This document shows, one piece after another, positions 16,377-64,000 of a DNA stretch of 64,000 nt. Within the stretch, counting starts at the first letter, position 1. Each line of letters starts with the position of its first letter. The stretch spans positions 184,978-248,977 of the forward strand of contig BTUR01000001.1 of the NCBI GenBank assembly GCA_045863475.1, written 5' to 3'. The stretch is from Candidatus Campbellbacteria bacterium. Its GTDB lineage: Bacteria > Patescibacteriota > Minisyncoccia > Phycocordibacterales > EsbW-18. The notes under the pieces were generated by a model that worked only from the letters and a program-made list of their open reading frames with translations, was not told the DNA's origin and searched no databases. Made by a program: the position numbers and the translations under genes.

Positions 16377-16392
16377 CTGTTCCCTGTTCCCT
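16377..16392. repeat. GGGAACAGGGAAC motif (reverse complement) directly after a TAG stop
   Basis: CTGTTCCCTGTTCCCT; in gene orientation the stop reads TAG TTAGGGAACAGGGAACAG. Confidence 0.5.
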
Positions 16393-18881: not shown

Positions 18882-19022
18882 GTATAGAAAGTATTTAGGA
18901 GTAATAGTTACGTGATTAAATGATAGCACGCAAAAAACGTAACAAAACGAATGTGTGGAAAAAGATACACCCCGCTCGGAGATGAAGTCCGAAACGGGGC
19001 GTGGTGCCATGCGGTGCGCGTA

Positions 19023-37073: not shown

Positions 37074-37100
37074 CCCCTCACACGAGGGGTTTTATTTTTT
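37074..37100. terminator. bidirectional rho-independent terminator
   Basis: CCCCTCACACGAGGGG with an A-run on one side and a T-run on the other; serves the ncRNA on + and the Xer gene on -. Confidence 0.6.
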
Positions 37101-43262: not shown

Positions 43263-43328
43263 GTAGTTTTTTCATCCACTAACTTTTTTGTCGCAACATT
43301 TTTTATCCGCTATGCTGTACCTATGAGT

Positions 43329-43446
43329 CCCGTTAGAAGCCACGGTCGTAACAAACGGGAATCGAAAACTTTGATGAAATACTATTACGCAAAAGTAATC
43401 ACACAGGTTTACTGGCGGTCGTTGACCGCGACCTGCTTCTAACGGG
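43329..43446 (+). promoter_or_regulatory. conserved cis-regulatory element, copy A; ends exactly at an ATG
   Basis: CCCGTTAGAAGCCACGGTCG...core TTGATGAAATACTATTACGCAAAAGTAATCACACAGG...CGACCGCGACCTGCTTCTAACGGG|ATG. The 20-bp termini are inverted repeats. Copy B lies at 59760-59878. Confidence 0.55.
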
Positions 43447-46432: not shown

Positions 46433-47983
46433 GTGCATACTCTCTCCGTGTCATTCGCAAAAACATACGGAGCACAGACCAATCTTTTGTCTGCACACAT
46501 AGTCGCTGCGGAAGTAGACGTCTCCGGTGGACTCCACGCATTTTCCATCGTGGGACTTCCCGACAAAGCAGTTGAAGAGTCACGCGACCGCGTGTCCGCC
46601 GCGATAAAAAATTCCGGATTCGAGTCGCCAAAAAGCAGGAATCAAAAAATCGTCATCTCACTTGCGCCTGCTGACATAAAAAAGGAGGGGCCATCGTTTG
46701 ATCTTGCTATTGCACTCTCCTATCTGCTCTCGCAAGACGACATTCGTTTCACTCCTGACAAAAAATTATTCCTCGGCGAACTCTCCCTTGATGGTGCGGT
46801 GCGCCGCGTCTCCGGCGTGCTCCCGTGCGTGCTCCACGCAAAACGCTCGGGATTTACTGAAGTATTCGTCCCAAAAGAAAACGTTCGCGAGGCGGCGCTG
46901 GTACACGGTATCGCTGTCTACGGTGTTGCAACACTGAAAGAACTCATCCAACACCTTGATGAAAAACAAAAAGAGCGCGTGCTCATTACACCGTCGGAAG
47001 AAACCCGCGTAGAAAGCACACCTCCCGCATATGCGGTGGACTTCCAAGACATACGCGGACAAGAAACAGGGAAACGCGCACTTGAAATCGCCGCAGCCGG
47101 AGGACACAACGTCGCACTCTGGGGACCGCCTGGCACCGGCAAGACACTTCTGGCACGCGCCCTCGCCGGCATTCTACCAACGCTGTCATTTGATGAGATG
47201 CTTGAGGTAACGAGTATTCACTCCGTTGCAGGAATACTCCGCGACGATGTCATAACCCACCCGCCGCTGCGCTCTCCGCACCACACGAGCTCGTACGTAT
47301 CACTAATAGGCGGCGGCGCATTCCCCAAACCCGGTGAGATAACACTCGCACACCGCGGCATCCTCTTTCTTGATGAATTTCCAGAGTTTGACCGTAGAGT
47401 CATCGAAGCACTGCGGCAACCGCTTGAAGAACGCGTTGTCTCGGTGTCGCGCGCAAAGGGGTCTGCACTCTTTCCGGCAGATACACTCACCGTTGTTGCG
47501 TTCAACCCGTGCCCGTGCGGCAAGTGGGGGAGCGCAACTGCGTGCACGTGCTCACCGCTCGTGCTTTCACGGTATCAGCGCAAGATGTCCGGACCCGTTA
47601 TGGATCGCATTGATTTGTGGGTTGAGATTCCGCCCGTTGAACACGCAACACTCGGCGAAACGGCAAGCGGTGAAAAAAGCGAGACGGTTCGTGCACGCGT
47701 AAACTCGGCACGTGAATTGCAACGAAACCGGCTTGCATCGTTTGAAAAAAGAAAAAACAGCGAGATGTCGGTGCGTGATCTCGACGCGCTCGTCCCGCTG
47801 AATGCGGAGACGCGCGCACTCCTCAACGAGTCAGCCGAAACACTGGGACTCTCCGCGCGCGGATATCACCGCGTTATCAAAACAGCGCGCACTATTGCCG
47901 ACTTGGACGGTTCAGAAAATGTCGAGACACGTCATATTCTGGAAGCGCTTCAGTACCGGCCGAAGTCACTGTTCTCGGTATAA
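46433..47983 (+). CDS. comM: YifB/ComM-family Mg-chelatase-like AAA+ ATPase
   Basis: N-terminal Lon-protease-like domain; Walker A GPPGTGKT; ILFLDEFPEF; C-terminal LSARGYHRVIKTARTIADL. Confidence 0.85.
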   Translation: MHTLSVSFAKTYGAQTNLLSAHIVAAEVDVSGGLHAFSIVGLPDKAVEESRDRVSAAIKNSGFESPKSRNQKIVISLAPADIKKEGPSFDLAIALSYLLSQDDIRFTPDKKLFLGELSLDGAVRRVSGVLPCVLHAKRSGFTEVFVPKENVREAALVHGIAVYGVATLKELIQHLDEKQKERVLITPSEETRVESTPPAYAVDFQDIRGQETGKRALEIAAAGGHNVALWGPPGTGKTLLARALAGILPTLSFDEMLEVTSIHSVAGILRDDVITHPPLRSPHHTSSYVSLIGGGAFPKPGEITLAHRGILFLDEFPEFDRRVIEALRQPLEERVVSVSRAKGSALFPADTLTVVAFNPCPCGKWGSATACTCSPLVLSRYQRKMSGPVMDRIDLWVEIPPVEHATLGETASGEKSETVRARVNSARELQRNRLASFEKRKNSEMSVRDLDALVPLNAETRALLNESAETLGLSARGYHRVIKTARTIADLDGSENVETRHILEALQYRPKSLFSV

Positions 47984-50188: not shown

Positions 50189-52114
50189 ATGTCACACCTC
50201 GACGGTCTTAATCCGGCACAAAAAAGAGCAGTGGAGCATATGAGCGGTCCGCTTTTGATTATCGCCGGCGCCGGAACGGGTAAAACGCGCGTCATCACAC
50301 ATCGCATCCTCAATCTCATCAACGCAGGTGTCCTGCCGGAGAAAATTCTTGCCATCACATTCACCAATAAAGCCGCCGGCGAGATGCGCGAGCGCGTTTT
50401 TAAACTCCTGCCGCCGGGAAGTCCCGCGCCGTTCATCGGCACGTTTCATGCGCTTGGCGTGAAAATCCTCCGGGAAAATCACCGTCTCCTCAACATTCCG
50501 AAGTTTTTCTCGATTTTCGACCGCGACGATTCAATTTCTACGATTAAGCGCATACTCCGCGACCTCGGACTAGACCCAAAACAGCATTCGCCCTCCGCGT
50601 TCCTCTCCGTTATTTCAAAAAATAAAAACGAAGCGCGTCCGCTCTCTGAATTCCGTGAGAAAGCGAACACGCTGTTTGAACGCATGACGGTTCCCGTGTG
50701 GGAGCGGTACAGCGAAGCACTCGCTCAGGAAAAAGCATTCGACTTTGACGATCTTTTACTTGCAACACTCTCGCTTTTCAAAAAGTATCCCGACATTTTG
50801 CGGGAGTATCAAAACCGCTGGTCGCACATCCACGTTGATGAGTACCAAGACACGAACACCGTGCAGTACGAACTCACACAACTCCTCTCCGGTGCGCACA
50901 AAAATATCTGCGTGGTCGGTGACCACGATCAGTGCATCTACACATGGCGCTCAGCCGACATGCGCAACCTCTCACGCTTTGAAGAAGATTTCCGTGACGT
51001 CACGGTTGTGACACTCGAAGAAAATTACCGCTCAACACAAACCATCCTCACCGCCGCAAACCGCGCCATTTCGCAAAACGAAATGCGCAAAGAAAAAAAT
51101 CTGTTCACCAGCGGGTCGGAAGGGGAGAAAATTGAGCTGTACACCGCCGCATCTGAGACCGATGAAGCACAATGGGTGGCGTCACGCGCACAGGAACTCA
51201 TTGACGCAGGTGTTCCGGAAAATGAAATTGCCGTGTTGTTCCGCGCAAACTTCCAATCACGCGCGCTTGAAGAGGCGTTTCTCAACGCGCGTGTTTCGTA
51301 TCAAGTGCTCGGCACACGGTTCTTTGAACGCCGTGAAGTAAAAGACGTGCTCTCATACATCGTCGCGGCGCTTAATCCCGACAACACAACCGCACTAGCA
51401 CGCATCATCAATGTCCCTGCGCGCGGCATCGGAAAAACAACACTTCTCAAAATATTTTCCGGGCAAGAGCACCTGCTCCCCCCAAAAATGAAAGAGAAAG
51501 TGACCGCATTTCGAACTCTTCTGTCGCGCATCGCCGACTTCTCGCACGCACACAAGCCGTCTGATGTCGTGAAATTCGTCGTGAAAGAAAGCGGTATCGA
51601 GCACGAACTCGCACACGGCACCGACGACGAACACGAGCGCCTTGGCAACATCCGTGAATTGGCAACGCTTGCCGTGCGCTACGACGCACTGCCCGCAGAC
51701 GAAGGCCTGCATACGTTTTTGGAAACCGCACTCCTAGCCGGTGACCAGGATTCACTGAAAAACGACGAGGCCTCGGTAAAACTTATGACCATTCACGCGG
51801 CAAAAGGTTTAGAGTTTGCGCACGTGTTTATTACGGGACTTGAAGAAGGATTGTTCCCCGATGAGCGCAGTACTCTGCGCGAAACACCGGAAGAGCGCGA
51901 GGAAGAGCGCCGGCTCTTCTATGTCGCGCTCACCCGCGCAAAGAAACAAGCACACCTCTCGCACGCCCTCATGCGCACCATCTTCGGTACGCCATCAATG
52001 AACGTTCCGTCGCAATTCATCACCGAACTCGACGCCGAGCTTGTGCGCGACGTTACGCCGCAGGATTCGTGGCGACCCGGAAGCGGAAAGGGGCTGCTTG
52101 ATATTGAGTTTTAG
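50189..52114 (+). CDS. pcrA: ATP-dependent DNA helicase, UvrD/PcrA family
   Basis: LNPAQKRAVEHMSGPLLIIAGAGTGKTRVITHRI, DEYQDTN, ...ATLAVRYDAL...MTIHAAKGLEF... are superfamily 1 helicase motifs. Confidence 0.85.
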   Translation: MSHLDGLNPAQKRAVEHMSGPLLIIAGAGTGKTRVITHRILNLINAGVLPEKILAITFTNKAAGEMRERVFKLLPPGSPAPFIGTFHALGVKILRENHRLLNIPKFFSIFDRDDSISTIKRILRDLGLDPKQHSPSAFLSVISKNKNEARPLSEFREKANTLFERMTVPVWERYSEALAQEKAFDFDDLLLATLSLFKKYPDILREYQNRWSHIHVDEYQDTNTVQYELTQLLSGAHKNICVVGDHDQCIYTWRSADMRNLSRFEEDFRDVTVVTLEENYRSTQTILTAANRAISQNEMRKEKNLFTSGSEGEKIELYTAASETDEAQWVASRAQELIDAGVPENEIAVLFRANFQSRALEEAFLNARVSYQVLGTRFFERREVKDVLSYIVAALNPDNTTALARIINVPARGIGKTTLLKIFSGQEHLLPPKMKEKVTAFRTLLSRIADFSHAHKPSDVVKFVVKESGIEHELAHGTDDEHERLGNIRELATLAVRYDALPADEGLHTFLETALLAGDQDSLKNDEASVKLMTIHAAKGLEFAHVFITGLEEGLFPDERSTLRETPEEREEERRLFYVALTRAKKQAHLSHALMRTIFGTPSMNVPSQFITELDAELVRDVTPQDSWRPGSGKGLLDIEF

Positions 52115-52200
52115 GGAACAGGGAACAGATGACGGGGAACAGGAGCGAGAAAGGAAACCTGCTATCATATTCCTAATCACCGTTCCCCGTTCCCCGTACC
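52114..52200. repeat. GGGAACAGGGAAC motif in inverted-repeat configuration between pcrA and rsmA
   Basis: TAG|GGAACAGGGAACAGATGACGGGGAACAGG at 52114-52143, and CCGTTCCCCGTTCCCCG (reverse complement) at 52181-52197. Confidence 0.5.
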
Positions 52201-52208
52201 CTACTCTC

Positions 52209-52994
52209 ATGGCCCACCGCGCAAAAAAACACCTCGGACAAAACTTTCTAAAATCAAAAGTGGTTGTTGCAAAAATGGTTGCCGCCGCGGATATCCTTGA
52301 AGGTGATGTTGTGCTTGAAATCGGACCGGGGAAGGGGGTACTGACTGAAGCACTCTTACAAACCGGATGCGTCGTCGTTGCAATTGAGAAAGACCGCGAG
52401 CTTCTGCCTCTCTTGCAGGAAAAATTTCAAAAAGAAATCGCCGCAAACAAACTTCATCTCATTGAAGACGACATACTGCAGTTTTCTCCTGAAAAAAACA
52501 CCTTGCTCTCGCACGGATACAAGCTCGTCGCTAATATTCCGTACTACATCACCGGAGAAATACTGGAAAAGTTCCTCTCAAATCAGCACGCGCCTTCGTG
52601 TGCGGTGCTTTTGGTTCAAAAAGAAGTTGCACAACGCGTGGTCGCGCGTGACGGACGCGAAAGCATTCTCTCAATCTCGGTGAAAGCATTCGGTACGCCG
52701 AAAATCGTGACCGCCGTTCCGAAAAAATATTTCTCACCCGCGCCAAAAGTTGACTCCGCTGTACTTCTCATCAACAACATCACCAAAAACAATTTCAAAG
52801 ACATGTCCGAAAAAAGATTTTTTGAAATCGTAAAAACCGGGTTCGCGCACAAACGCAAGGTGCTGACCTCAAACCTCTCGTCGCTTTTTCCAAAAGAGAC
52901 GCTCGGAGCATTTTTCAAAGAACACGGACGCCCATTGAGCGTCCGTGCGGAAGAGTTGTCTTTGTCTGACTGGTTGTCACTTAGCCGTCGCTGA
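52209..52994 (+). CDS. rsmA: 16S rRNA (adenine1518/1519-N6)-dimethyltransferase
   Basis: AKKHLGQNFL...VLEIGPGKGVLTEALL...NIPYYIT. Confidence 0.85.
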   Translation: MAHRAKKHLGQNFLKSKVVVAKMVAAADILEGDVVLEIGPGKGVLTEALLQTGCVVVAIEKDRELLPLLQEKFQKEIAANKLHLIEDDILQFSPEKNTLLSHGYKLVANIPYYITGEILEKFLSNQHAPSCAVLLVQKEVAQRVVARDGRESILSISVKAFGTPKIVTAVPKKYFSPAPKVDSAVLLINNITKNNFKDMSEKRFFEIVKTGFAHKRKVLTSNLSSLFPKETLGAFFKEHGRPLSVRAEELSLSDWLSLSRR

Positions 52995-53451
52995 GCAGTG
53001 ATGTTCCCATGTTGAGCAGGTAGCCGTCACCGGCGCCGGTGACCGGCGAGCATCCGGTTGAACTAATTGCCCAGCACGTCGCACCGCCCGTATACGGAAT
53101 GTAATTGCCGACGACATTCGCCTGTGATCCCGGCCATATTGCGTAGTATTCGTAGATGCGCGGAATACCCATGGACAACCAGTCGGGAAAGCCGATACCG
53201 AGTTTCTCAAGAAACTGCAGGAGATAAAAGTAAATAATGCGGTACTCCGTATATGTTGTCTTGTCGTACACCGTAAAAATGATGAATCCGCACGTGCATG
53301 TTTGATAGTCCACGTTCACGATATAGCCACCAAACGGCCTGACGAACTGCGCTTCGGCCCTACGGGAGAAAAACGGAGAGAATGAGGTGAGCAAAACCAA
53401 CGAAAGCGTGGCGAGGGAGATAAGTGTTCGTTGTACTGGTGCGGAATTCAT
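52981..53451 (-). CDS. hypothetical secreted protein
   Basis: Start taken at MNSAPVQRTLISLATLSLVLLTSFSPFFSRRAEA (signal peptide). Confidence 0.4.
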   Translation of the reverse strand: MNSAPVQRTLISLATLSLVLLTSFSPFFSRRAEAQFVRPFGGYIVNVDYQTCTCGFIIFTVYDKTTYTEYRIIYFYLLQFLEKLGIGFPDWLSMGIPRIYEYYAIWPGSQANVVGNYIPYTGGATCWAISSTGCSPVTGAGDGYLLNMGTSLLSDG

Positions 53452-53455
53452 ATAT

Positions 53456-54133
53456 TTAGAAGATAAACGAGAAGGGGATAAAGTTGCTCCGCTCATTCCG
53501 TCCGTTGATAACACCGATTTGGTATTCCATCGTTCCGGCCGCATCTCTGAAAAAGTCCCCGTGCTCTTCCAAAAAATCCTCAGGAAACGGCCCTTGTACA
53601 GTAAACGTAAGTGTTTCACCGTCCGGCGAGTCAATCAAACCCCACTCCTCAAACGCAGAGCCAACACGGTTTCCTGTGGCGGTGAACCCCGTGCCATATA
53701 TTGTCACTTCCGTGCCCACACCACCGCTTTTTGGTTCAATACCCAGTATTTTCAACACATAACGCTCATCCGGGCGCTTTGAATCAGTAACTTGAGATGC
53801 CAGTAGATGTGCACGAGTCGAGCGCCCAAAAAACCCCGTTCCGGCAAAAAGACCAAGTGGTGTAAGGATTTCTGAGGCGTGTGCCTCCTGATACCGGCGC
53901 ACGGCATCCGCCGTCAACAACCCAAAATACATTGTTTCGTTCCCCGGAGAGCCGGGGCCGAGCGCGGCAATTTGTGTTCGCTCATCTTCATTAAGCAGTC
54001 GCTGAAGTTCAAGCACATCCTGTCCGCTATCGCCAAGTGAGAGATCGCGAGAAAATGTTGCCGCAAAAACAAAAAGTGGGGCAAAAAACAAGAATACAGC
54101 TATACCCAGAAATCCTGAAAAAGAGGTGCGCAT
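53456..54133 (-). CDS. secreted protein with a peptidoglycan-binding-like domain and a C-terminal beta-rich domain
   Basis: Signal peptide; LSLGDSGQDVLELQRLLNE is PG_binding_1-like. Confidence 0.5.
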   Translation of the reverse strand: MRTSFSGFLGIAVFLFFAPLFVFAATFSRDLSLGDSGQDVLELQRLLNEDERTQIAALGPGSPGNETMYFGLLTADAVRRYQEAHASEILTPLGLFAGTGFFGRSTRAHLLASQVTDSKRPDERYVLKILGIEPKSGGVGTEVTIYGTGFTATGNRVGSAFEEWGLIDSPDGETLTFTVQGPFPEDFLEEHGDFFRDAAGTMEYQIGVINGRNERSNFIPFSFIF

Positions 54134-54193
54134 AGGAATAGTATAACGTAAAATAAACGGTAAAGAACCCGCACGTCGTGCGGGTGGGGATGT

Positions 54194-55189
54194 ATGGATA
54201 CCACACGAACCACACCAAGCAGTAAGATTGTCGCGCTCGCCATCATTGTCGTCGCTGTTGTGGTTGCGTCGTGGCTCATCAAATTCGGAGGGAAGACCGA
54301 AGGAGTTGCCGATACGCGCTTTACGACCTCAGACGCTCAAAAAACATACGTGAATGAAACCGACACCGATGGGGACGGACTAAAGGATTGGGAAGAGTCG
54401 CTGTGGGGATTTAATCCAAAAAATGCTGACTCCGACGGGGATGGCATCAATGACGGCGCCGAAAAACAGGAACTACAGGCACAGATACTCACGCAACAAG
54501 AAGCATTTGCACAGCTTCTCGACCCCACACAGGACCCGAATTGGGAATCGCTCTCGTACACCGAACAGGTGACCGGACGACTCCTTGCTGACTACCTCAC
54601 ATTCAAACAGACCGGTCGTGCGCTCACCGAGAAAGACGCTGCCGCGCTCGTTGAAAATCTTCCGACATATGAGATTCCAACCAAGGCGGCACCGCGCGTG
54701 TACTCACTCACCGAACTGCGTCTCTCAAATGCAGCAGGAGAAGGCGCGTTGTACGCGTACGGAAACGAAGTTGGTTCCGTGCTTTCAGTTCCCGAGAATG
54801 AAACCGCTCCAAACGAACTCCTCGTGCTCGTGTCATTCATGCGTTCGGGTGACGACGCGGTATTTGTACGCGACCTGCAAATCGTTATTACTCAATACAA
54901 CACGGTAATTTCCGAACTGCTTGCCATCACAGTTCCAAAAAGCATTGTCGTCGAACACCTTGGTGTCATCAACGCGCTGTCTGCAGTACAAAATGATCTT
55001 CGTTCTTTCTACAGCTTTACGGAAGATCCATTCCTCGCGCTTTCAGTGTTCACTGCATATAATGAAAGTACGACGCAACGCGACGAGGCGTTCGACGCAT
55101 TGCGCGCGGCCCTCGCGGATGAGGGTGTTGCATACCCAGAAACGGAACCGGGATACGTACTTATGAGCGCCGCTTCTCTATCACTATGA
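54194..55189 (+). CDS. membrane-anchored protein with thrombospondin-type-3-like Ca2+-binding repeats
   Basis: N-terminal TM; DTDGDGLKDWEE and DSDGDGINDGAE repeats. Confidence 0.5.
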   Translation: MDTTRTTPSSKIVALAIIVVAVVVASWLIKFGGKTEGVADTRFTTSDAQKTYVNETDTDGDGLKDWEESLWGFNPKNADSDGDGINDGAEKQELQAQILTQQEAFAQLLDPTQDPNWESLSYTEQVTGRLLADYLTFKQTGRALTEKDAAALVENLPTYEIPTKAAPRVYSLTELRLSNAAGEGALYAYGNEVGSVLSVPENETAPNELLVLVSFMRSGDDAVFVRDLQIVITQYNTVISELLAITVPKSIVVEHLGVINALSAVQNDLRSFYSFTEDPFLALSVFTAYNESTTQRDEAFDALRAALADEGVAYPETEPGYVLMSAASLSL

Positions 55190-56904
55190 TTTCCCTTTTT
55201 CGAACAACAACTACCCAAAAATGCTTCGCTGTCGTCCTTCTTGTTATCTTCTCCTTCGGCGTTATATCCTCCGCATACCCGCATCCCGCCTACGCACAGA
55301 GCACGGAGGAAGAAACTACGTACTACGACGGTCCGTCATTTGATGAACTGTTTGAGAAATACGCTGAACAGTGCGCGACCGCAGCGGCCATCGACCTTGT
55401 TCTGGGCGCAGTGCTAAGTGTGATACCGACATCGGTACCAACTGCTCCTTGGCCAACTATCATCAAAGAAAGCATAAAAGACTGTCTCGTGTCTGCGACA
55501 AAGTTTGCACTGCTTGAACTCATCACCGGACAAGCCGTCGGCTGGGCGCAACGCGGGTACGGCGGTAATCCGTCATTCGTACAAAATATCTCGCAGTATC
55601 TTCTCTCTATCGCCGACTCCGTCGCCGGAAGTTACATTGAACGCACAACCGCCGGACAATTTCTCTGCTCGCCATTCCGCGCCGAGATTCAACTCGCACT
55701 TACGCGCTACTACCAGGCACAGTCAGGGCGTGCATTTCCGTACGGACAATCAAGTTGCACCTTAACCGGTATCGCAAGTAACGTTGACGCGTTTCTCGCC
55801 GGTGACTTTTATTCCGGTGGTTGGGAATCATGGATAGAGTTGTCCACCAATTCATATCTCACGCCGTACGGCGCATACCTCGAGTCAGCCGCTGCACTTG
55901 AAAAAGAGGTTGAGGAGGCGACCACAGAAGCTGAAAAGAAACTCGAATTTGGAAGCGGTTTCTTGAGTAAAGAAACCCAGAACTGCTACGAGACACAAGA
56001 GACTCTTGAAGACGGTACCGTCGTTACGTTCCAGGAGTGCGATCCACCGCAAGTGGTCACCCCGGGTGAGACGGTGAAATCCAGTTTGGAAAAAGCATTC
56101 GGTGTAAAACTTGACGCAATCGTCGCAGCCGACGAGCTCAACGAGATCATCTCGCTCGTCGCCGTCTACCTCCTGACCGACGTTCTCACCCAAGATGAGG
56201 GTCTCACCGGCTACAACTACACCGAGGAGTTTGAAGAACCACTCGTTGATGTCGAGGACCCGAACACCTATCCGGGTGGAGGCGGCGGGCAGTGCACACC
56301 AACAGACCCAGAACCCGGCACACTCGGATCAAGTATCACCTATACGCCATCAGCGATAAACGATTTCTTTGCCGGCAACATACCGCTTCCCTCGGGTAAA
56401 CGCTGGGGTGATTACCGGCGCGTTGCAATTACCTTTGACCTTACCGTAGGCGCGTGGAACGGGCCCGGAGAGCAGTACAACGTTGTGTGGCTCAACCGCG
56501 GCGGTAATGATTGGGGCGGTGGCGCAAACCGCGTTATAGAGGTAGCGGCGGTGCACACAACTGGTACCAATCTGCGCGCCGTCACGCAAGTAGACAGCTG
56601 TACGATAGACAGCAGCAACCGTAAGTCTCAGCGCATAGCACTACAACCTGGAGAGACGTATGCCTTTACGATTGACTACGAGCCGGGAGCAAATCGTGCA
56701 CGACTTACCGTGCATCGAGGCAACAATCAAATACTGTCTATGAATCTTGACCCGACCGTAGACTTTCTCTCAAGCACAAACTCAGAAAACCAAACGGGGT
56801 ACTATCTCCAACTTGGCGCGGAAGGAAGCGTGCAGGGGAATGAGGGAAACACGGACGGTTGGAGATGGAGTGATATCACTGTTGAGTTTGAACCGGGGAA
56901 CTAA
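55186..56904 (+). CDS. large secreted hypothetical protein
   Basis: 572 aa; signal peptide ending AYA; 4-nt overlap with the upstream gene (operon). Confidence 0.5.
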   Translation: MISLFRTTTTQKCFAVVLLVIFSFGVISSAYPHPAYAQSTEEETTYYDGPSFDELFEKYAEQCATAAAIDLVLGAVLSVIPTSVPTAPWPTIIKESIKDCLVSATKFALLELITGQAVGWAQRGYGGNPSFVQNISQYLLSIADSVAGSYIERTTAGQFLCSPFRAEIQLALTRYYQAQSGRAFPYGQSSCTLTGIASNVDAFLAGDFYSGGWESWIELSTNSYLTPYGAYLESAAALEKEVEEATTEAEKKLEFGSGFLSKETQNCYETQETLEDGTVVTFQECDPPQVVTPGETVKSSLEKAFGVKLDAIVAADELNEIISLVAVYLLTDVLTQDEGLTGYNYTEEFEEPLVDVEDPNTYPGGGGGQCTPTDPEPGTLGSSITYTPSAINDFFAGNIPLPSGKRWGDYRRVAITFDLTVGAWNGPGEQYNVVWLNRGGNDWGGGANRVIEVAAVHTTGTNLRAVTQVDSCTIDSSNRKSQRIALQPGETYAFTIDYEPGANRARLTVHRGNNQILSMNLDPTVDFLSSTNSENQTGYYLQLGAEGSVQGNEGNTDGWRWSDITVEFEPGN

Positions 56905-56907
56905 CGT

Positions 56908-59094
56908 ATGTTTACGTGGCTTAAAAAAAACCTGAAATACATCCTACCCATCGCGTGTGTGGCACTCTTTTTACTCTTGCCTGAAAGCTTATACGCCCAA
57001 GGATTTCTTCGATACCTCCACCCAAAAACATGGATTGAAGAATTGCTCAAACTCGTTCTCCAACTCGGTGGGCTTATCCTCGGATTTGCCGGCATCGTGC
57101 TTGAGATGACCATTCAGTACACGATAGTTAAGATGAAGGATTTTGTGAACGGTATTCCTTCCATTGATTTGGCGTGGCGCACTATCCGCGATGTTGCCAA
57201 CATTCTTTTCATCTTTGTTCTTCTCCTCATCTCCATCAACATCATTCTTGGTTCGTGGGGAAGCGGACCATACAACAAATCGCTTATTCCGAAGGTCATC
57301 ATTGCCGCGCTTCTTATCAACTTCAGTTTGTTTTTTACAAAAGTTGTTATTGATGTTTCCAACATCATTACCTTCGAGTTTTATGAAACAGCGAAAAGCG
57401 TCCGTAGTAGCGGCACCATAGATCTCCCCGGAGGCGTCACAATAGACACCGGACTCACAAGCTCATTCATGCAAGGGCTTGGCGTGTCAAAGATTGCAAC
57501 CGACAAAGCGGCGGCAACATTCGCGCAGTCATCATATCCGGTCTTCAGCCTCACCATGGGTATCATCACAACGCTGGTGGCGGCGTTTGTTTTTCTTGTG
57601 ATAGCAGCATTGCTTATCGTCCGGTTCGTCTTGTTTATCTTCTTGATGATAACTTCGCCTATTGCATTCCTTGGTGAACTGCTACCACAACTTCGAACAC
57701 ATTCAAAAAAATGGTGGGAAACTCTTTCTGCTCAGGCTGCGTTTGCCCCCATATTCTTCGTCCTTATTCTCATCGTCGTGCTCATTATTAACGATGACCA
57801 ATTCGGTGCGCTTGTTACCGCGCCGCCGGGAACATTCGGACAAAACGTCAACACTGCACTTATACAGATGGTGGCAATTCTGTTTCAGTACGCAATTGTC
57901 ATCGGCATGATTGTCGCCGCACTTGTCGCCGCGAAACAAACTTCGAATAAAGCCGGCGAAGGATTTGTAAAATGGGGTTCAAAGTGGGCGGGCAAAGCGG
58001 TATTCGGAGGTACCGCAGCACTTGGACGCAACACCCTAGGTCGCCTCGGGGAAAAAATCGCCCAGTCGGGGACGCTTGGAACAGCGGTCGAGAAAGGTGG
58101 CTTCCGTGGTTCTCTTGCAAAAGGCCTTATTCTTGCAGGAGATAAGGGGAGAAGTTGGACGTATGACGCACGTGCTTTCAAGGATGTTTCAGGTGGTGAC
58201 TTCAGTGCTGGCGATGTTGGCATTAAGGGAGGGCTCGTTGGTGCACGTGAAGCACGTCAAAAACTAATCCAGGAGCGTGCTGGTAAATATGCAACAGCAG
58301 CAGGTATTGGCGGCTTGGAAGAGGAACTCCAAAAAGCGGAAGCCGCTGGTGATCAGAAGAAAGCGGCGGAGATTAAAGAACAAATCGCGAAACTAAAAGG
58401 AACCAGAACATCATCACAAGAAGCACTCGAAAAAGAGACGAAAAAGTTAACTGCCGCACAACGGGAGGAAGCGCAGACCGCAATACGTGTTATTGACGCA
58501 CAGGAAGCATATATTGAAGGCCTACAGCGTGACTTCAGACTTGAGCAGGATCCGAAGAAAAAAGCAGAGCTGGGAGCAAAGATACAAGCCACAGTCAGTG
58601 AACTGAATACCTACAAGGGAACGGTGGCTCAGTACAATGCTTACATGGATGCCCACAAGAGAGCGGAAAGTGTTGCAAAGGGCGCGTCCGGTGCTGTGAC
58701 GAGAGCGAAAGGAAAATACGCTGATACTCTTGCCTCAGGCGGTGCATTCATCTCAACCAGAAATGCTGGAGATGCTCTACGGGCTGAGATGAAGAAGGAC
58801 AGTGGTGATGCTGCAAAAGAAGTAATCAAAGCAATGAAAGCTGCTGCACAAGCACAAGTGAGACAGGCTGGTGGTGGGCAAGCAGGAGGTGGTGCTGGAG
58901 GAAGAGTACGAAGAGGAGCGGGGCAACCCCCCCAAGGACAACCCGCGGGCGGAGGAGGTGGGCCGCAAAACCCGGCTCCTCCTCAACCCCCGCGGCAAGC
59001 AGGCGGCGCAATCCTTAATCCTCAAGGACAACCCGTAAACGCACAGGGAACTACTGTTCCACCAAATAATCCTCCGAACATAATAACCCCGTAA
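56908..59094 (+). CDS. VirB6/TrbL-like polytopic membrane protein with a long Gly/Pro/Gln-rich C-terminal tail (type IV secretion-like)
   Basis: Signal sequence, then at least 6 TM helices with large loops, a Lys/Glu coiled-coil region, and a C-terminal GGGQAGGGAGG...PPQPP tail. Confidence 0.5.
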   Translation: MFTWLKKNLKYILPIACVALFLLLPESLYAQGFLRYLHPKTWIEELLKLVLQLGGLILGFAGIVLEMTIQYTIVKMKDFVNGIPSIDLAWRTIRDVANILFIFVLLLISINIILGSWGSGPYNKSLIPKVIIAALLINFSLFFTKVVIDVSNIITFEFYETAKSVRSSGTIDLPGGVTIDTGLTSSFMQGLGVSKIATDKAAATFAQSSYPVFSLTMGIITTLVAAFVFLVIAALLIVRFVLFIFLMITSPIAFLGELLPQLRTHSKKWWETLSAQAAFAPIFFVLILIVVLIINDDQFGALVTAPPGTFGQNVNTALIQMVAILFQYAIVIGMIVAALVAAKQTSNKAGEGFVKWGSKWAGKAVFGGTAALGRNTLGRLGEKIAQSGTLGTAVEKGGFRGSLAKGLILAGDKGRSWTYDARAFKDVSGGDFSAGDVGIKGGLVGAREARQKLIQERAGKYATAAGIGGLEEELQKAEAAGDQKKAAEIKEQIAKLKGTRTSSQEALEKETKKLTAAQREEAQTAIRVIDAQEAYIEGLQRDFRLEQDPKKKAELGAKIQATVSELNTYKGTVAQYNAYMDAHKRAESVAKGASGAVTRAKGKYADTLASGGAFISTRNAGDALRAEMKKDSGDAAKEVIKAMKAAAQAQVRQAGGGQAGGGAGGRVRRGAGQPPQGQPAGGGGGPQNPAPPQPPRQAGGAILNPQGQPVNAQGTTVPPNNPPNIITP

Positions 59095-59098
59095 CCCA

Positions 59099-59734
59099 AT
59101 GATGAACCCGGAAATACAACAATTGATAAACAAACAGGTTGGGGCTATGCCACCGAAGGTGCGCGAGGCGTTTTTGCACATTGATGCATCAAAATATATC
59201 GGCACCTTGGCCAAGAAACACGACCTTCGCACGGATCAGGCCGGTGTCCTCGAAAACGAGATAATGATTATTATGCTGGGCCTCGAAAACCCACGCACAT
59301 TCATGAATAACCTGACACAGAAGGGAAATATTTCTCGGGATACCGCAGCCGCTATCGTAGAAGATATCAACCGGGATGTGTTCGATAAAATTCGTCACGA
59401 CCTTGCAACTTTTCTTGAACAGAGTGAAAAACAGTATGGCCCTGGAGAGCCGGAAAAAACAGATTCGCCCGCTCCTGCTGTTATTATGCCCCAGCCGCAA
59501 ACAGCCCCTACAACACCTGTCGCACCTGTTATCACCCCCGCGGCACCGACATCTCCAACAGCACCAGCGCAGGGAAGTGGTGCGCGCACACTCAACACCG
59601 ACTTTGCAAAAGAGAGAATGGAGCGTCAGTTCCGCATGCCGACTGAAACGAAACAGGTGACCGAAAAGCCGGTTTCCGGGGAAGAGGGGAAAAAGTACCC
59701 GGGCGTTGATCCGTACCGCGAACCGACGAAGTAG
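59099..59734 (+). CDS. hypothetical protein with a Pro/Thr-rich linker
   Basis: 211 aa; the stop TAG is followed by TTGGGAACAGGGAACGGTCAT. Confidence 0.4.
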   Translation: MMNPEIQQLINKQVGAMPPKVREAFLHIDASKYIGTLAKKHDLRTDQAGVLENEIMIIMLGLENPRTFMNNLTQKGNISRDTAAAIVEDINRDVFDKIRHDLATFLEQSEKQYGPGEPEKTDSPAPAVIMPQPQTAPTTPVAPVITPAAPTSPTAPAQGSGARTLNTDFAKERMERQFRMPTETKQVTEKPVSGEEGKKYPGVDPYREPTK

Positions 59735-59759
59735 TTGGGAACAGGGAACGGTCATGAAT

Positions 59760-59878
59760 CCCGTTTAGAAGCCGCGGTCGCTACTCTCAGAAATCAACAA
59801 CCATGATAAAACGTTATTACACAAACATAATTTCGCAGGTTCAGAAGCGGACAGTGACCGCGACCTGCTTCTAACGGG
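59760..59878 (+). promoter_or_regulatory. conserved cis-regulatory element, copy B; ends exactly at an ATG
   Basis: CCCGTTTAGAAGCCGCGGTCGC...core ATGATAAAACGTTATTACACAAACATAATTTCGCAGG...GTGACCGCGACCTGCTTCTAACGGG|ATG. Its 27-nt 3' end is identical to copy A. Confidence 0.55.
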
Positions 59879-60292
59879 ATGAAATTTGAAGTACCGCAGT
59901 TTATCGACGTCGAAGACAAGGTGTTCGGACCGTTCACCTTTAAGCAGTTCGTGTACCTCGCCGGAGGAGCGGGTCTTTCAGTTGTCATCTGGCTTTTTGT
60001 GCCGCGCTTCATCGGCATTTTTCTCATTGCCGCGGTTCTGGGGCTCGCCGTTGCGCTCGCATTCTACAAGGTAAATGAGAAACCGTTCGTGAATTTCCTG
60101 GAATCCATGCTGCGCTTCTTCGTTTCAAAAAAACTCTACATCTGGAAGAAGGAGGCTCGAAAAGTCGAACACAAAACGGCGGCGGAGGCACAGGTAGAGG
60201 GCGTCGTCGTGCCGCGCCTGTCTGACAGCAAGCTTCGTGACCTGGCCTGGAGCCTTGATGTGCACGATTCACTGTACGACGAACAAAAGTAG
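59879..60292 (+). CDS. PrgI/VirB3-like small membrane protein (type IV secretion)
   Basis: MKFEVPQFIDVEDKVFGPFTFKQFVYLAGGAGLSVVIWLF has the VPxxxxxxDKxxGxxTxxQxxYL N-terminus and two TM helices typical of Gram-positive VirB3-like proteins. Confidence 0.45.
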   Translation: MKFEVPQFIDVEDKVFGPFTFKQFVYLAGGAGLSVVIWLFVPRFIGIFLIAAVLGLAVALAFYKVNEKPFVNFLESMLRFFVSKKLYIWKKEARKVEHKTAAEAQVEGVVVPRLSDSKLRDLAWSLDVHDSLYDEQK

Positions 60293-60309
60293 GGAACAGG
60301 GAACGGTCA

Positions 60310-60714
60310 TCAGGGGACAGGAGGAAAGGACTTGCGGCAATACCTAATGATGCCGTTAAGGAGTTTGAGGGTTTTTATCACCCTTTCACAAAGCAGGAAA
60401 AAAGCATCGTCTTGTAAATACCCGACGTCACGGGCCAGGAGAAGCTGGTTTTGCACCTCAACCAAAGAACCTCGTGCAACAAGGTAGAATCGGAGTTTCT
60501 CTTTATGAGACACCCTTCCGTGTGCTTCGGCCACATTAGAGGTCACTGAAACTGCCGCCCGCCGTATTTGGTTTGTTAATCCGAATATTTCATCCCCGGG
60601 AAATTCTTTTGTGCAAAGGTAAATTGCCTTTGCAAGGCCGTGTCCCTCCTTCCAAACCTGTAAATCGGTAAAATCTAGAGCCTTACTCATACCGCCACGG
60701 TACACAAACTGCAT
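60310..60714 (-). CDS. four-helix-bundle protein (the family found in 23S rRNA intervening sequences), bracketed by inverted repeats
   Basis: LDFTDLQVWKEGHGLAKAIYLCTKEFPGDEIFGLTNQIRRAAVSVTSNVAEAHGR...LRFYLVARGSLVEVQNQLLLARDVGYL. Flanked by GGGAACAGGGAACGGTCAT (60292-60310) and its imperfect inverse GTTCACCGTTCCCGGTTCCCAGTTCCC (60737-60763). Confidence 0.7.
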   Translation of the reverse strand: MQFVYRGGMSKALDFTDLQVWKEGHGLAKAIYLCTKEFPGDEIFGLTNQIRRAAVSVTSNVAEAHGRVSHKEKLRFYLVARGSLVEVQNQLLLARDVGYLQDDAFFLLCERVIKTLKLLNGIIRYCRKSFPPVP

Positions 60715-60766
60715 AAAGCCCTCCTAAACCGTTCTGTTCACCGTTCCCGGTTCCCAGTTCCCTAAT

Positions 60767-61444
60767 ATGCGTTACAATGTAACGCATATGGCGCAACAAA
60801 AAGCGCAGAGCGCGCAGGTATTCGTTCCCATCAAAGAGATCCGCAGCGGTGTCGTCATCCTCAAGGACGGTTCCATGCGATCCGTGCTCCTCTGTAGCTC
60901 GCTGAACTTCGCTCTGAAGTCCGAAGATGAGCAGTCGGCAATCATCATGCAGTTTCAGAACCTCCTCAACTCGGTGGAGTTTCCCATACAGATATTCATT
61001 CAGTCACGCGAGCTGGACATCCGTCCGTACATCGCGCTTTTAGAAAACCAGATAAAAGTGCAGGAGATTAATCTCATCAAAATGCAGACGCGCGAGTATA
61101 TCGAGTTCATCAAAGGGTTCATGGAGAACGTCAATATCATGTCCAAGAGTTTCTTCGTTGTTGTCCCGTATTCTCCGGCGGTTATCTCTGCAGCGAAGGG
61201 AGGTGTGAAGGGCGCACTTGGTGGCATCCTCTCGGGCAAAAAAGAAAACCCTGAGCAGAAAATCATCGCGTTTGAGGAACACCGCAGTCAGCTCGAACAA
61301 CGCATCGCGGTTGTATCACAGAATCTTGCACGCACCGGCATTCGCGCAGTCCAGCTGCAGACGGAGGAACTCGTTGAACTGTACTACAAACTGTTCAACC
61401 CGGGCGACTCCGAAAAACCGATTGCACTCTCCGCAGTTAAATAA
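60767..61444 (+). CDS. VirB4-like protein, N-terminal domain ORF
   Basis: QVFVPIKEIRSGVVILKDGSMRSVL matches the N-terminus of Gram-positive VirB4/TrsE/PrgJ ATPases. It ends at TAA, 3 nt before the ATG of the ATPase ORF. Confidence 0.5.
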   Translation: MRYNVTHMAQQKAQSAQVFVPIKEIRSGVVILKDGSMRSVLLCSSLNFALKSEDEQSAIIMQFQNLLNSVEFPIQIFIQSRELDIRPYIALLENQIKVQEINLIKMQTREYIEFIKGFMENVNIMSKSFFVVVPYSPAVISAAKGGVKGALGGILSGKKENPEQKIIAFEEHRSQLEQRIAVVSQNLARTGIRAVQLQTEELVELYYKLFNPGDSEKPIALSAVK

Positions 61445-61447
61445 TCT

Positions 61448-63391
61448 ATGGGAATTTTTGACTTCATCACAGGAAAAAAGAACAACGACGCACCGCAAAT
61501 CTCCCCGGTGTTGCCAAAAGACATCTACGAAGCCGGTGTGCTTGAGTTGCAAGACATCATTGCGCCGTCGGCACTCAAAGTAACACCGCGCGCACTGAAC
61601 CTTGGTGACAAAGTTGTTCGCACGTTTTTCGCCATTTCGTATCCTCGCTTCCTGCCTGACAACTGGCTCTCGCCGATTATCAACCTCGACAAAGTATTTG
61701 ATATCTCAATTTCCATCATTCCGGTAGACACAGCGCAGGTACTCAAAGAATTTCGAAAACGCGTTGCCGAAGTACAAAGTCAGATTCATATTCGTGAAGA
61801 AAAGGGGCTCGTGCGCGATCCGATGCTTGATGCCGCATACCAAAACCTTGAAAATCTCCGCGACCAGCTCCAGCAGGCAACTGAGAAGCTTTTTGACGTC
61901 GGTCTCTACATATCAATCTACGCCGATAAAGAAGAGGACTTGGATAAACTTGAGTCTGAAATCCGCTCACTCCTGGAAAGCCGCCTTATTTACCTCAAAC
62001 CCGCACTCTTCCAACAAGAGCAAGGGTTCCGCAGTGTTCTGCCGATACAGAGCGACGAGCTCGGCGTGCACAGCAAGCTCAACACCTCGCCGCTTTCCTC
62101 ATTCTTCCCGTTTGTGTCATTTGACCTCACGTCCGACAAGGGAATCCTCTACGGCATCAACCGGCACAACGCGGGGCTCATCCTCTTTGACCGTTTCTCC
62201 ATGCCGAACTACAACTCGGTGACCTTCGCTACCTCCGGTGCCGGAAAATCATACGCAACGAAGCTCGAGATTCTGCGCACACTCATGTTTGATACCGACG
62301 TTATTGTGATTGACCCGGAGCGTGAATACGAGCACATGAGTGAAGCGATGGGCGGGCGTTACTTCAACATCTCACTGACAAGCGAACACCACATCAATCC
62401 GTTTGATTTGCCGCCCGTGCGCGAAGACGAAACACCCGCAAACGTTTTGCGCTCACAAATCGTCACCTTGGTGGGACTCTTCCGCATCATGTTCGGCGGA
62501 CTCACCCCTGAAGAAGACGCCATCATTGACCGCGCCATCACCGAGACGTACGCACTCAAAGACATCACCGGCGAGCGTGATTTCTCCGGAACCGAACCGC
62601 CGCTGTTGTCTGACTTTGAACTGGTCCTCGCCGGCATGGAAGGAGGGGAGTCTCTGGTGCAACGACTCACAAAGTACACAAAGGGTACCTGGTCCGGATT
62701 CATCAACATGCCGACGAACGTCGACATCAATAAGAAGTTTATTGTCTTTTCCGTGCGCGACATGGAAGACGAACTCAAGCCGGTTGCGATGTACCTCATC
62801 ACACACTACATCTGGGGCGCGGTACGACGCACGCTGAAAAAACGCCTGCTCGTTGTTGATGAGGCATGGTGGATGATGAAAGAAGAAGACACCGCGTCAC
62901 TTCTCTTCGGATTGGCCAAGCGCGGACGCAAATACTACCTCGGCATCGCAACCATCACCCAAGACGTCGGCGACTTCTTGCGTTCTCCCTACGGACTGCC
63001 GATTATCACAAACTCATCCATCCAGATGCTCTTGAAGCAGTCGCCGTCGGCTATCGATTTGGTGCAACAGACATTCAACCTCACCGACGAGGAGAAGTAT
63101 CTGCTTCTGGAATCAGAACAAGGAGAGGGCATCTTCTTTGCGGGACTCAAGCATGTTGCCATCAAAGTCATCTCGTCATATACGGAAAACCAAATCATCA
63201 CCTCAGATCCATCAGAACTGCTTTCCATTAAAAAATCGCGTGAACAGCTCCGTTCCGCAAAAAGTGACGATGCGGAGCCTCTCCAGGAGAAAATCTATTC
63301 CAACAGAAGGGTTCCGGACGGCGATACCACAGCACCCGTTGCACCCGGAGCAGGAATCGCCGGCAACGTGGAGCTTAGGAACGTAGAATAA
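61448..63391 (+). CDS. virB4: VirB4/TrbE-like type IV secretion ATPase (C-terminal ATPase portion)
   Basis: Walker A TFATSGAGKSYATK, Walker B LLVVDEAWWMM, and the conserved RKY..G.....QD motif (KRGRKYYLGIATITQDVGDF). Confidence 0.85.
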   Translation: MGIFDFITGKKNNDAPQISPVLPKDIYEAGVLELQDIIAPSALKVTPRALNLGDKVVRTFFAISYPRFLPDNWLSPIINLDKVFDISISIIPVDTAQVLKEFRKRVAEVQSQIHIREEKGLVRDPMLDAAYQNLENLRDQLQQATEKLFDVGLYISIYADKEEDLDKLESEIRSLLESRLIYLKPALFQQEQGFRSVLPIQSDELGVHSKLNTSPLSSFFPFVSFDLTSDKGILYGINRHNAGLILFDRFSMPNYNSVTFATSGAGKSYATKLEILRTLMFDTDVIVIDPEREYEHMSEAMGGRYFNISLTSEHHINPFDLPPVREDETPANVLRSQIVTLVGLFRIMFGGLTPEEDAIIDRAITETYALKDITGERDFSGTEPPLLSDFELVLAGMEGGESLVQRLTKYTKGTWSGFINMPTNVDINKKFIVFSVRDMEDELKPVAMYLITHYIWGAVRRTLKKRLLVVDEAWWMMKEEDTASLLFGLAKRGRKYYLGIATITQDVGDFLRSPYGLPIITNSSIQMLLKQSPSAIDLVQQTFNLTDEEKYLLLESEQGEGIFFAGLKHVAIKVISSYTENQIITSDPSELLSIKKSREQLRSAKSDDAEPLQEKIYSNRRVPDGDTTAPVAPGAGIAGNVELRNVE

Positions 63392-63393
63392 CC

Positions 63394-63828
63394 ATGGACG
63401 GGCAACAAGAAGCAAAAAAGCCGCGCATCAGCAAGACGAGTGCGGTCCTGATGGTCGCAACCGCAATTATTCTCGACCTTGTGAGTATCATACCCGCTGT
63501 CGGACAGGCTCTCGCCGATGTTGGGTCATTCGTTATATTTCTCCTTTGGTTCCTCATTCTAGGAGTTCCGCTTGTCACACCAAAAAAACTCCTAACAACA
63601 GGACTTGCGTATGTGATTGAAGTTATCCCGGCCATTAGCGCACTGCCGGCAATCACTGCGGGTGTTATAATTATGATAGTGCTGACCAGGGCGGAGGACG
63701 CAACAGGACTCACACTTCTGGATTCAAAAGGTATTGTTAATCCGCTCAATGTCACCAAATCCTTGGGTAAAAATACTGTTTCAAACGCCACCCCTCGTAT
63801 GAATGACATACTCACCCCATCAGCCTAA
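63394..63828 (+). CDS. small polytopic membrane protein (possible T4SS pilin/VirB2-like or accessory protein)
   Basis: 144 aa with 3-4 TM helices; 3-nt gap after virB4. Confidence 0.4.
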   Translation: MDGQQEAKKPRISKTSAVLMVATAIILDLVSIIPAVGQALADVGSFVIFLLWFLILGVPLVTPKKLLTTGLAYVIEVIPAISALPAITAGVIIMIVLTRAEDATGLTLLDSKGIVNPLNVTKSLGKNTVSNATPRMNDILTPSA

Positions 63829-63835
63829 GACATAT

Positions 63836-64000
63836 GAAGAAAACCCTTTCCACAACACTCTTACTCTCACTTCTCGCCACACCCCTCCTTTCTCTTGCGC
63901 AGGTTAACGTTGCAACATCCGTCATTCAATCCTCAGTTGAGCTTATTTGGGAATCGCACGCATACCTGCCACCGCTGTATCCGGGCAAGGCGTTATATCC
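63836..64000 (+). CDS. secreted protein (5' fragment, truncated by the window end)
   Basis: MKKTLSTTLLLSLLATPLLSLAQ is a signal peptide. Confidence 0.3.

Follow-up and report, generated by a model that had tools for sequence, protein, structure and literature searches.

The subject of this analysis is the gene cluster at positions 53456-64000 of a 64,000-nt window (the whole stretch of DNA analysed, numbered from its first base) from a metagenome-assembled genome (MAG) of Candidatus Campbellbacteria. Gene assignments are based on an open reading frame (ORF) listing and on profile searches against Pfam and NCBIfam. An earlier, sequence-only reading of this DNA had described the region as a type IV secretion system (T4SS)-like cluster of ten genes, and all ten products are present where it placed them. 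A Candidatus Campbellbacteria MAG encodes a protein that matches one of them, a 572-aa secreted protein, with 100% identity. The cluster is built around a co-directional block in which a VirB4 ATPase with an intact P-loop, a separate TrsD-like N-terminal domain, a PrgI protein and a VirB6-like protein are encoded together with conserved secreted and membrane proteins. This block lies on the plus strand. The genes had been described as co-directional throughout, but the peptidoglycan (PG)-binding gene at the 5' side is on the minus strand, and so is a gene of the 23S rRNA IVP family that had not been listed. The core genes are as follows.

56908-59094, plus strand: 728-aa VirB6-like polytopic membrane protein, with a transmembrane domain at about residues 1-360, then a coiled coil and a Gly/Pro/Gln-rich tail
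59879-60292, plus strand: 137-aa PrgI family protein (Pfam PrgI, 43.5 bits against a gathering score of 27)
60767-61444, plus strand: 225-aa TrsD-like protein, corresponding to the N-terminal domain of a canonical VirB4 (NCBIfam); an alternative start at 60788 gives 218 aa
61448-63391, plus strand: 647-aa VirB4 ATPase (NCBIfam NF045971, Pfam P-loop_TraG and AAA_10)

VirB4 is the energising component and signature protein of T4SSs. The 647-aa ATPase falls into this family: with NF045971 ('VirB4-like conjugal transfer ATPase, CD1110 family'; cut-off 325) it reaches 362.9 bits over positions 185-733 of the 752-position model, and also matches Pfam P-loop_TraG (E 1.5e-22) and AAA_10. Among PDB sequences it best matches 4AG5, a VirB4 ATPase domain (E 1.5e-41), and next R388 TrwK (E 8.6e-8). 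The archaeal DNA-import ATPase CedB is matched weakly (E 1.3e-6) and over the P-loop region only. Both nucleotide-binding motifs are intact, Walker A as ATSGAGKS (read by eye in the translation) and Walker B as LLVVDE. All 8000 scored candidates of the VirB4 search are relatives. Among the 120 relatives listed, identity is 75-89% and the organism names, where given, are all Patescibacteria lineages or 'bacterium', which is consistent with membership in the Patescibacteria VirB4 clade, as judged by similarity search and not by phylogeny.

Scanning GTDB species genomes yielded 80 related loci; genes were mapped by tblastn on the 44 that have full 10-kb flanks. The TrsD-like ORF is separate from and upstream of virB4 in 44/44 of them, usually at a spacing of 1-9 nt and in varying frames. 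It matches VirB4_plasma (NF045975; E 5.8e-15, model positions 98-233 of 894) and, at E 1e-3, positions 8-104 of the 752-position CD1110 model, the part that is missing from the 647-aa VirB4. The match to the TrsD/TraD family is weak (E 4e-3), and the precomputed Pfam assignment is TraC-like PF26593. Since the separate ORF is kept in every locus, the two-gene TrsD/VirB4 arrangement is the normal state of the family and not a disrupted gene; virB4 had been described as split, which is right in the sense of two ORFs and wrong in the sense of a broken gene. Fusion of the two products by stop-codon read-through was considered and rejected: the ORFs are in frame here (TAA, one codon, ATG), and in relatives the 1-9 nt spacing occurs in all frames, so the in-frame arrangement is not conserved. 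A perfect 12-nt palindrome, ATATGCGTTACA/TGTAACGCATAT, lies at 60765-60789 across both candidate TrsD-like starts (60767 and 60788).

In Gram-positive T4SSs, the place of VirB3 is taken by PrgI, which is a small membrane protein and the anchor of VirB4. The assignment of the 137-aa protein to this family was confirmed, and it occurs in the related loci at a median identity of 50%. In two close relatives (VirB4 86% identical) prgI is inverted relative to the rest of the cluster (L004:8751-9194 and L006:8871-9287), which is a local inversion of a core T4SS gene.

The naming of the 728-aa protein as VirB6-like was also upheld. Pfam TrbL/VirB6 is matched by eight of 39 aligned orthologues from syntenic loci, at E 5.6e-8 in the best case. 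For many homologues in the databases PF04610 or PF19590 is precomputed, and NCBI labels some of these T4SS proteins. There is in addition a weak match to the CD3337/EF1877 mobilome membrane protein. The best natural matches of its AlphaFold model are TrwI/VirB6 and DotA, TrwI being the stalk base in the R388 T4SS. Sequence identity to TrwI is only 11-16%, and the predicted VirB6 assignment is supported at the level of fold and family, not of close homology.

Gene order is near-invariant across the related loci. It runs from uvrD and rsmA through the PG-binding gene (minus strand), a thrombospondin type-3 (TSP3) repeat protein gene, the ~570-aa secreted protein, the VirB6-like gene, a ~210-aa protein with a DPYRE motif and prgI, and continues with trsD, virB4, a small polytopic protein, an immunoglobulin (Ig)-like secreted protein, a VirB2-like pilin and a ~420-aa membrane protein to yidC (minus strand), rnpA (minus strand), (rpmH), dnaA and dnaN. 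PrgI, TrsD, VirB4, the Ig-like protein and the 420-aa protein are found in 44/44 loci, and VirB6-like, YidC and DnaA in 43/44. DnaN follows with 41/44, RsmA with 40/44, the 572-aa protein with 39/44, the pilin with 36/44 and the TSP3 protein, in the same position, with 33/44. These counts show which of the 'hypothetical' neighbours equal the core in conservation.

The window ends within the cluster, and the sequence-only reading had pointed to the DNA just past this end as the place to look for VirD4, a relaxase or VirB11. Syntenic relatives show four more cluster genes there, then yidC-rnpA-(rpmH)-dnaA-dnaN, and no VirD4, relaxase or VirB11. The same order was obtained from gene calls on two long contigs, one of 306 kb and the other the complete 811-kb genome CP064977.1; in both, the cluster stops at yidC-rnpA-(rpmH)-dnaA-dnaN and conjugation genes are missing throughout. 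The Paceibacteria pattern of a chromosomal position near dnaA/dnaN, rnpA, rpmH and ksgA is found at this locus as well: rsmA (ksgA) lies in the window, upstream of the cluster (52209-52994), and the others lie 3' in relatives.

The VirB2-like pilin gene is the third gene after virB4 in relatives. T4SS_pilin is matched by 41/42 of its orthologues and TrbC by 11/42, and these family matches argue strongly for a predicted pilin in those genomes. Profile searches found no match to pilin families for any ORF inside the window, and the candidate pilin that had been placed there was not confirmed. Because of its third position after virB4 in relatives, the pilin gene here would lie beyond position 64000, by synteny about 0.8-1.8 kb past it.

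Neither the cluster nor the twenty other window ORFs scanned (eighteen of 250 aa or more, two near 200 aa) gave a relaxase, VirD4 or VirB11 match in profile searches, which bears out what had been noted by eye; there was also none downstream as far as dnaN in the loci L002 and L003, and none in the 10-kb flanks of relatives that were examined. Families VirB7, VirB8, VirB9 and VirB10 gave no match in any cluster protein. The relaxase and the VirD4 or TcpA coupling protein by which a conjugative MPF-FATA (a mating-pair formation class) system is recognised in CONJScan-type searches are found neither in the window nor in the syntenic flanks. This combination agrees closely with what Quinonero-Coronel et al. 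(2025) described for Patescibacteria, where T4SSs were detected in 2,417/3,035 genomes, VirB4 forms a monophyletic clade nested in MPF-FATA, adjacent TrsD, PrgI/VirB3, VirB6 and VirB2-like pilins are abundant and relaxases are nearly absent (PMC12102498). In Paceibacteria, the same study places the T4SS near dnaA, dnaN, rnpA, rpmH and ksgA.

We therefore read the region, with a probability of roughly 0.88, as a chromosomal, origin-proximal T4SS of the Patescibacteria (Candidate Phyla Radiation, CPR), an MPF-FATA descendant of Gram-positive conjugation machinery that has lost the DNA-processing parts. The description of the region as a T4SS-like cluster with VirB4, VirB3/PrgI and VirB6-like proteins, without conjugation-specific genes and typical for small-genome bacteria, was thus correct. 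It is a rediscovery of a published system whose architecture was already described in 2023-2025 and which nearly all of these ultra-small bacteria possess beside the replication origin.

No evidence contradicts the identification of the cluster as a Patescibacteria T4SS. Several points nevertheless weigh against the full reading. The evidence for VirB6 is transitive and structural: the 728-aa protein of the window taken alone has no significant Pfam match (below threshold), its sequence profile found nothing among PDB sequences, and the Foldseek matches of its model to TrwI/VirB6 and DotA reach only E 6e-3 to 8e-2. Unlinked VirD4 homologues occur in many Patescibacteria (PMC12102498), and one elsewhere in this genome is possible. 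The N-terminal domain of the 572-aa protein is not modelled with confidence, so its place in the machine is conjecture. Finally, the function is extrapolated from Saccharimonadia, the class in which essentiality was shown and one other than that of the Paceibacteria/Campbellbacteria.

The remaining genes of the cluster encode secreted, membrane and cytoplasmic proteins.

53456-54133, minus strand: 225-aa secreted PG_binding_1 protein (Pfam PG_binding_1, 26.4 bits against a gathering score of 23; weak IPT/TIG match)
54194-55189, plus strand: 331-aa membrane-anchored protein with bacterial TSP3 (calcium-binding) repeats (Pfam TSP3_bac, 31.3 bits against a gathering score of 25)
55186-56904, plus strand: 572-aa secreted protein; its N-terminal domain, some 340 aa long, is helical and conserved, and its C-terminus is a concanavalin-A-like (lectin/glucanase) beta-sandwich
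59099-59734, plus strand: 211-aa Pro/Thr-rich protein with a helical N-terminal domain, a Pro/Thr-rich linker and a C-terminal DPYRE motif; no transmembrane segment, no Pfam family
63394-63828, plus strand: 144-aa polytopic membrane protein with a conserved D28, an NPKR loop and an E-IP...LP-WT motif; no signal peptide
63834-64000, plus strand: 5' end of the Ig-like secreted protein gene, with a signal peptide, running off the window end

In the AlphaFold model of the 572-aa protein, residues ~380-572 have a predicted local distance difference test (pLDDT) score of 80-95 and the N-terminal domain is of low confidence. With the confident part, Foldseek retrieved PL7 alginate lyases, legume lectins, galectins and pentraxins at E ~1e-6. 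Orthologues swap the C-terminus for Ig-like, F5/8 type C, PKD or laminin G modules. In the N-terminal half, cysteines C161, C191 and C267 are invariant in the family and C285 is nearly so, and a weak DUF4141 match was seen in 2/32 orthologues. A conserved anchor combined with a swappable binding module suggests a surface-exposed recognition protein, and the 572-aa protein is a candidate surface or host-binding component. With its lectin-fold, modular C-terminus, this conserved secreted protein encoded upstream of VirB6 is a concrete candidate for host recognition.

The TSP3 protein is encoded by the first gene of the co-directional block. The PG-binding gene is divergent from the cluster and has a homologue in the same place and on the same strand in 15/44 full-length loci (tblastn), and the membership of its product in the T4SS is uncertain. 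As Pfam searches found no hydrolase or other catalytic domain in it, the PG-binding protein cannot be called a VirB1 equivalent.

In the 211-aa family (28 aligned orthologues), D204, P205, Y206 and E208 are invariant, and the DPYRE motif stands 5-8 residues before the stop codon in this protein and its orthologues. The motif occurs once in the window. Across the 44 related 21-kb loci, a DP[YF]RE sequence at most 12 residues from a stop was found at the position of the 211-aa gene in 36/39 cases. The 144-aa protein was considered as a pilin and rejected: in an alignment of 32 orthologues encoded directly downstream of virB4, neither T4SS_pilin nor TrbC was matched, there is no signal peptide and no Pfam family recurs consistently. 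Although only its 5' end is present, the last ORF carries the motif SSVELIWES..Y.PP.Y.GKAL, which matches the consensus VDL.WEA..YTPPFYKGKAL of the family found after virB4 in all relatives. Domains recognised in 30 orthologues of this Ig-like protein are BiPBP_C in 11, Ig_3 in 7 and PKD_3 in 4.

Two small genetic elements are found within the operon, one on each side of prgI. Their coordinates, with those of further hairpin copies in the window (three in all), are:

59759-59879, plus strand: hairpin element copy B, with a 13-14-bp closing stem TCCCGTTTAGAAGC...GCTTCTAACGGGA; it ends on the A of the prgI start codon and has the direct repeat ATGAA at its flanks
43328-43447, plus strand: hairpin element copy
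8597-8697, minus strand: hairpin element copy
60290-60764: IVP cassette, with a gene for a 134-aa 23S_rRNA_IVP protein (four-helix bundle; Pfam E 6.3e-33) at 60310-60714 on the minus strand

The sequence-only reading had placed a regulatory element copy before prgI, and the element is real. It pairs with the copy at 43328-43447, to which it is 75% identical; RNA folding z-scores of the two are -4.5 and -5.3. At the same prgI position, the element is found in L002 (8718-8840) and L005 (8278-8398), with three compensatory stem pairs. The family is widespread; its general form is TCCCGTTAGA-N(75-105)-TCTAACGGGA, 95-125 nt long. Scanning metagenomes with this form gave at least 120 stretches (L086-L205) with 126 elements, the arms being fixed by the search pattern and the orientation being chosen by the ORF. 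In 103/126 elements listed, the element-end ATG opens an ORF that has 80 codons or more or that continues past the contig end, as compared with 21% of all ATGs, and an exact 5-nt direct repeat ATGNN flanks 78/126. The genes that follow are housekeeping genes unrelated to each other (102 genes in 91 clusters; hpf, ftsH, typA, proS and others). Stem positions beyond the searched pattern pair in 94-100 of the 101 unique copies listed, with several pair types, whereas in shuffles the mean is 62-70 and the maximum 77. The CCT[AG] asymmetry of the element is fixed relative to the gene among the copies listed.

These hairpins could be elements resembling miniature inverted-repeat transposable elements (MITEs), or a processed 5' leader. 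If they are MITE-like, duplication of an ATGNN target would make insertions tolerable only at start codons. A promoter cassette is not supported, since -10 boxes show no preferred position and are matched just as often on the opposite strand; an integron attC site was rejected, the GTT and AAC core sites being in the opposite arrangement (our own reading of the sequence). Rfam gave no match at gathering threshold or at E <= 1, and no mention of the element was found in the literature searched. Besides prgI, the gene at 43447-45084 begins at such a hairpin, of the subtype most similar to the prgI copy. It encodes a 545-aa protein with a long Pro-rich N-terminus, one transmembrane segment, an uncharacterised C-terminal domain and no Pfam family.

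The IVP gene sits between prgI and the VirB4 N-domain ORF. The ends of its cassette are 31-nt imperfect inverted repeats at 60290-60320 and 60734-60764, made of GGGAAC units, and a gene-less copy of the cassette stem lies in the uvrD-rsmA spacer (52112-52203). The gene is absent from L002 and present in 7/44 full loci, at other cluster spacers or on the other strand. In relatives (L005, L008, L013, L014, L016, L017, L029, L043, L046, L058, L062 and L077), IVP genes always lie between inverted arrays of short tandem repeats of about 7 nt, the sequence of which differs by genome. The cassette is an insertion within the cluster and not a part of the T4SS; such cassettes have the stem architecture of intervening sequences (IVS) outside rRNA. 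Both the start-codon hairpin and the IVP cassette may affect expression of the operon in which they lie, and they have seemingly not been described before.

A further short repeat, GGGAACNGGGAAC, is present in 12 copies in the window, where 0.43 would be expected. Five of them stand a few bases after stop codons (10998-11010 and 16379-16391 on the minus strand, 52114-52126, 59737-59749 and 60292-60304), following the unrelated genes of a 231-aa ORF, an 871-aa secreted protein, uvrD, the 211-aa protein and prgI.

Elsewhere the window carries housekeeping genes (rplB, rplD, tuf, nusA, tig, clpP, rny, cca, a tyrosine recombinase, pnp, comM/yifB, a LysM-M23 peptidase, uvrD and rsmA) and genes for two large secreted proteins. 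The latter (12879-15074 and 16395-19010, both minus strand) have FG-GAP repeats in one and a divergent InlB B-repeat domain in the other; they sit amid ribosomal and translation genes 35-40 kb from the cluster, to which no link is evident. They may be the large secreted proteins among which the sequence-only reading had seen the cluster embedded. Promoter and terminator counts over 52900-64000 were not above those of shuffles, and operon boundaries were not called.

As to function, we propose that VirB4 and TrsD, docked on PrgI and VirB6, would power the assembly of a membrane channel, and that the same machine would build a filament out of the VirB2-like pilin whose gene is expected just beyond the window end. 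The secreted neighbours, namely the lectin-like 572-aa protein, the TSP3 protein and the Ig-like protein, would form an extracellular, host-facing part and mediate host contact. The machine would link the epibiont to its host cell and could be needed for growth on that host. According to reviews (PMC11665869; PMC12857230), homologous T4SS genes were reported by Wang et al. (2023) as essential for the epibiotic growth of Southlakia epibionticum, a Saccharibacterium and the one organism examined genetically, while its transformation depends on ComEC, which is dispensable. These findings indicate that the T4SS does something other than, or beyond, transformation; its role has been called 'completely unknown' (PMC11665869; PMC12857230). 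A 2026 preprint describes tubular structures, possibly T4SS pili, and proposes a model of feeding on host RNA.

Because no coupling protein or relaxase is linked to the cluster, formation of a pilus or contact with uptake of host material, or else export of something other than DNA, is favoured. Within this range, uptake of host material or contact only seems the best single guess, at a little under even odds; export of effectors appears appreciably less probable. A conjugation-like apparatus was one of two options named in the sequence-only reading; conjugation is very improbable in the absence of a relaxase or coupling protein. The other option, competence or DNA uptake, is speculative, stays as one of several hypotheses and is somewhat disfavoured as the sole role.

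Export of effectors would make the cluster a translocator that delivers proteins into or onto the host bacterium, like effector T4SSs in general and the coupling-protein-less Ptl and Brucella VirB systems. Precedents exist for protein-exporting T4SSs without a linked coupling protein (PMC12102498), and delivery of effectors to host cells has been speculated on by researchers in the field (PMC11665869). Speculatively, the invariant C-terminal DPYRE of the cytoplasmic 211-aa protein could be a recognition signal; its single occurrence in the window, however, means that no set of substrates is marked there, and no effector, chaperone or coupling protein was identified. We regard this as a possible but not a probable role.

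A machine for DNA uptake, importing environmental or host DNA in the manner of Helicobacter pylori ComB or archaeal Ced, is less probable again. The lack of a linked coupling protein or relaxase recalls both systems, VirB4 shows the weak similarity to CedB given above, and a comM/yifB-type gene lies 13 kb upstream (46433-47983). Nucleotide acquisition through the T4SS has been raised as a possibility in reviews (PMC11665869), and the host-RNA feeding model of the preprint, with its tubes as possible T4SS pili, leads in the same direction. Against this stand the separate pathways implied by S. epibionticum, in which ComEC is dispensable but the T4SS is essential, the lack of the ComB outer-membrane parts VirB7, VirB9 and VirB10, the restriction of the CedB match to the P-loop region, and the fact that no DNA-binding or nuclease component was found in the cluster.

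A remnant or active integrative and conjugative element (ICE) in the chromosome, as might be suggested by the origin of the best-scoring VirB4 family in Firmicutes conjugative elements (CD1110 family) and by the tyrosine recombinase gene at 37092-38000, is effectively refuted by synteny, the same housekeeping genes flanking the cluster in at least 40 species-level genomes, which is the opposite of a mobile island; in addition, relaxase and coupling protein are missing from the window and from the downstream DNA of relatives, VirB4 is 75-89% identical among the relatives listed and tracks taxonomy (PMC12102498), the GC content shows no compositional break (0.50-0.52 against 0.52-0.56 nearby), and the recombinase is 16 kb away amid housekeeping genes.

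Returning to the Patescibacteria T4SS with pilus or contact formation, a more specific version can be imagined, in which the cluster would be an import-directed, pilus-bearing conduit for feeding on host macromolecules, the lectin-like 572-aa protein would form its host-recognition tip, and prgI would be controlled by a Patescibacteria-wide family of start-codon hairpins that duplicates ATGNN. We consider this full combination a long shot. Whatever its role, the T4SS is one of few machines that are both conserved and apparently essential in the Patescibacteria, a radiation that is huge and uncultivated. The present locus is a clean and typical Paceibacteria/Campbellbacteria example of the published architecture and not a new kind of system.

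The locus can be compared with several known systems. H. pylori ComB and archaeal Ced are likewise T4SS-derived and have no relaxase or linked coupling protein, and they import rather than export. ComB, however, has VirB7-10 homologues, which are not present here, and Ced uses CedA/CedA1/CedA2 with the HerA-like CedB, a gene set that this locus does not have, the likeness to CedB being at P-loop level only. With the VirB-type (MPF-T) systems of R388 and Agrobacterium, the cluster shares a VirB4 ATPase domain similar to TrwK and a VirB6-like protein whose model resembles TrwI, whereas the outer-membrane core of VirB7, VirB9 and VirB10, VirB11 and a VirB5 recognisable by sequence are all lacking.

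The Gram-positive MPF-FATA systems (pCF10 Prg/Pcf, pGO1 Trs and Clostridioides CTn/CD1110) share several features with the cluster. VirB4 scores above the CD1110 cut-off, PrgI and TrsD are signatures of the class, an outer-membrane core is absent from both, and the VirB6-like protein weakly matches CD3337/EF1877. Unlike those systems, the cluster has no relaxase, coupling protein, oriT or PrgB-type adhesin, and no clear VirB1 hydrolase or VirB8/PrgL was found. The Gram-positive systems for their part are without the VirB2-like pilin that relatives of this locus have, and here the genes occupy a fixed chromosomal site instead of a mobile element.

The closest counterpart is the T4SS of the Patescibacteria clade itself. 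It has the same VirB4 with adjacent TrsD, PrgI/VirB3 and VirB6, a nearby VirB2-like pilin (seen here in relatives) and no linked relaxase, and it occupies the same chromosomal site beside dnaA, dnaN, rnpA, rpmH and ksgA (rsmA). Nothing essential differs: near relatives of this locus have one pilin gene as compared with an array of six in Saccharimonadia, and the locus itself carries the IVP cassette between prgI and trsD and the hairpin element on the prgI start.

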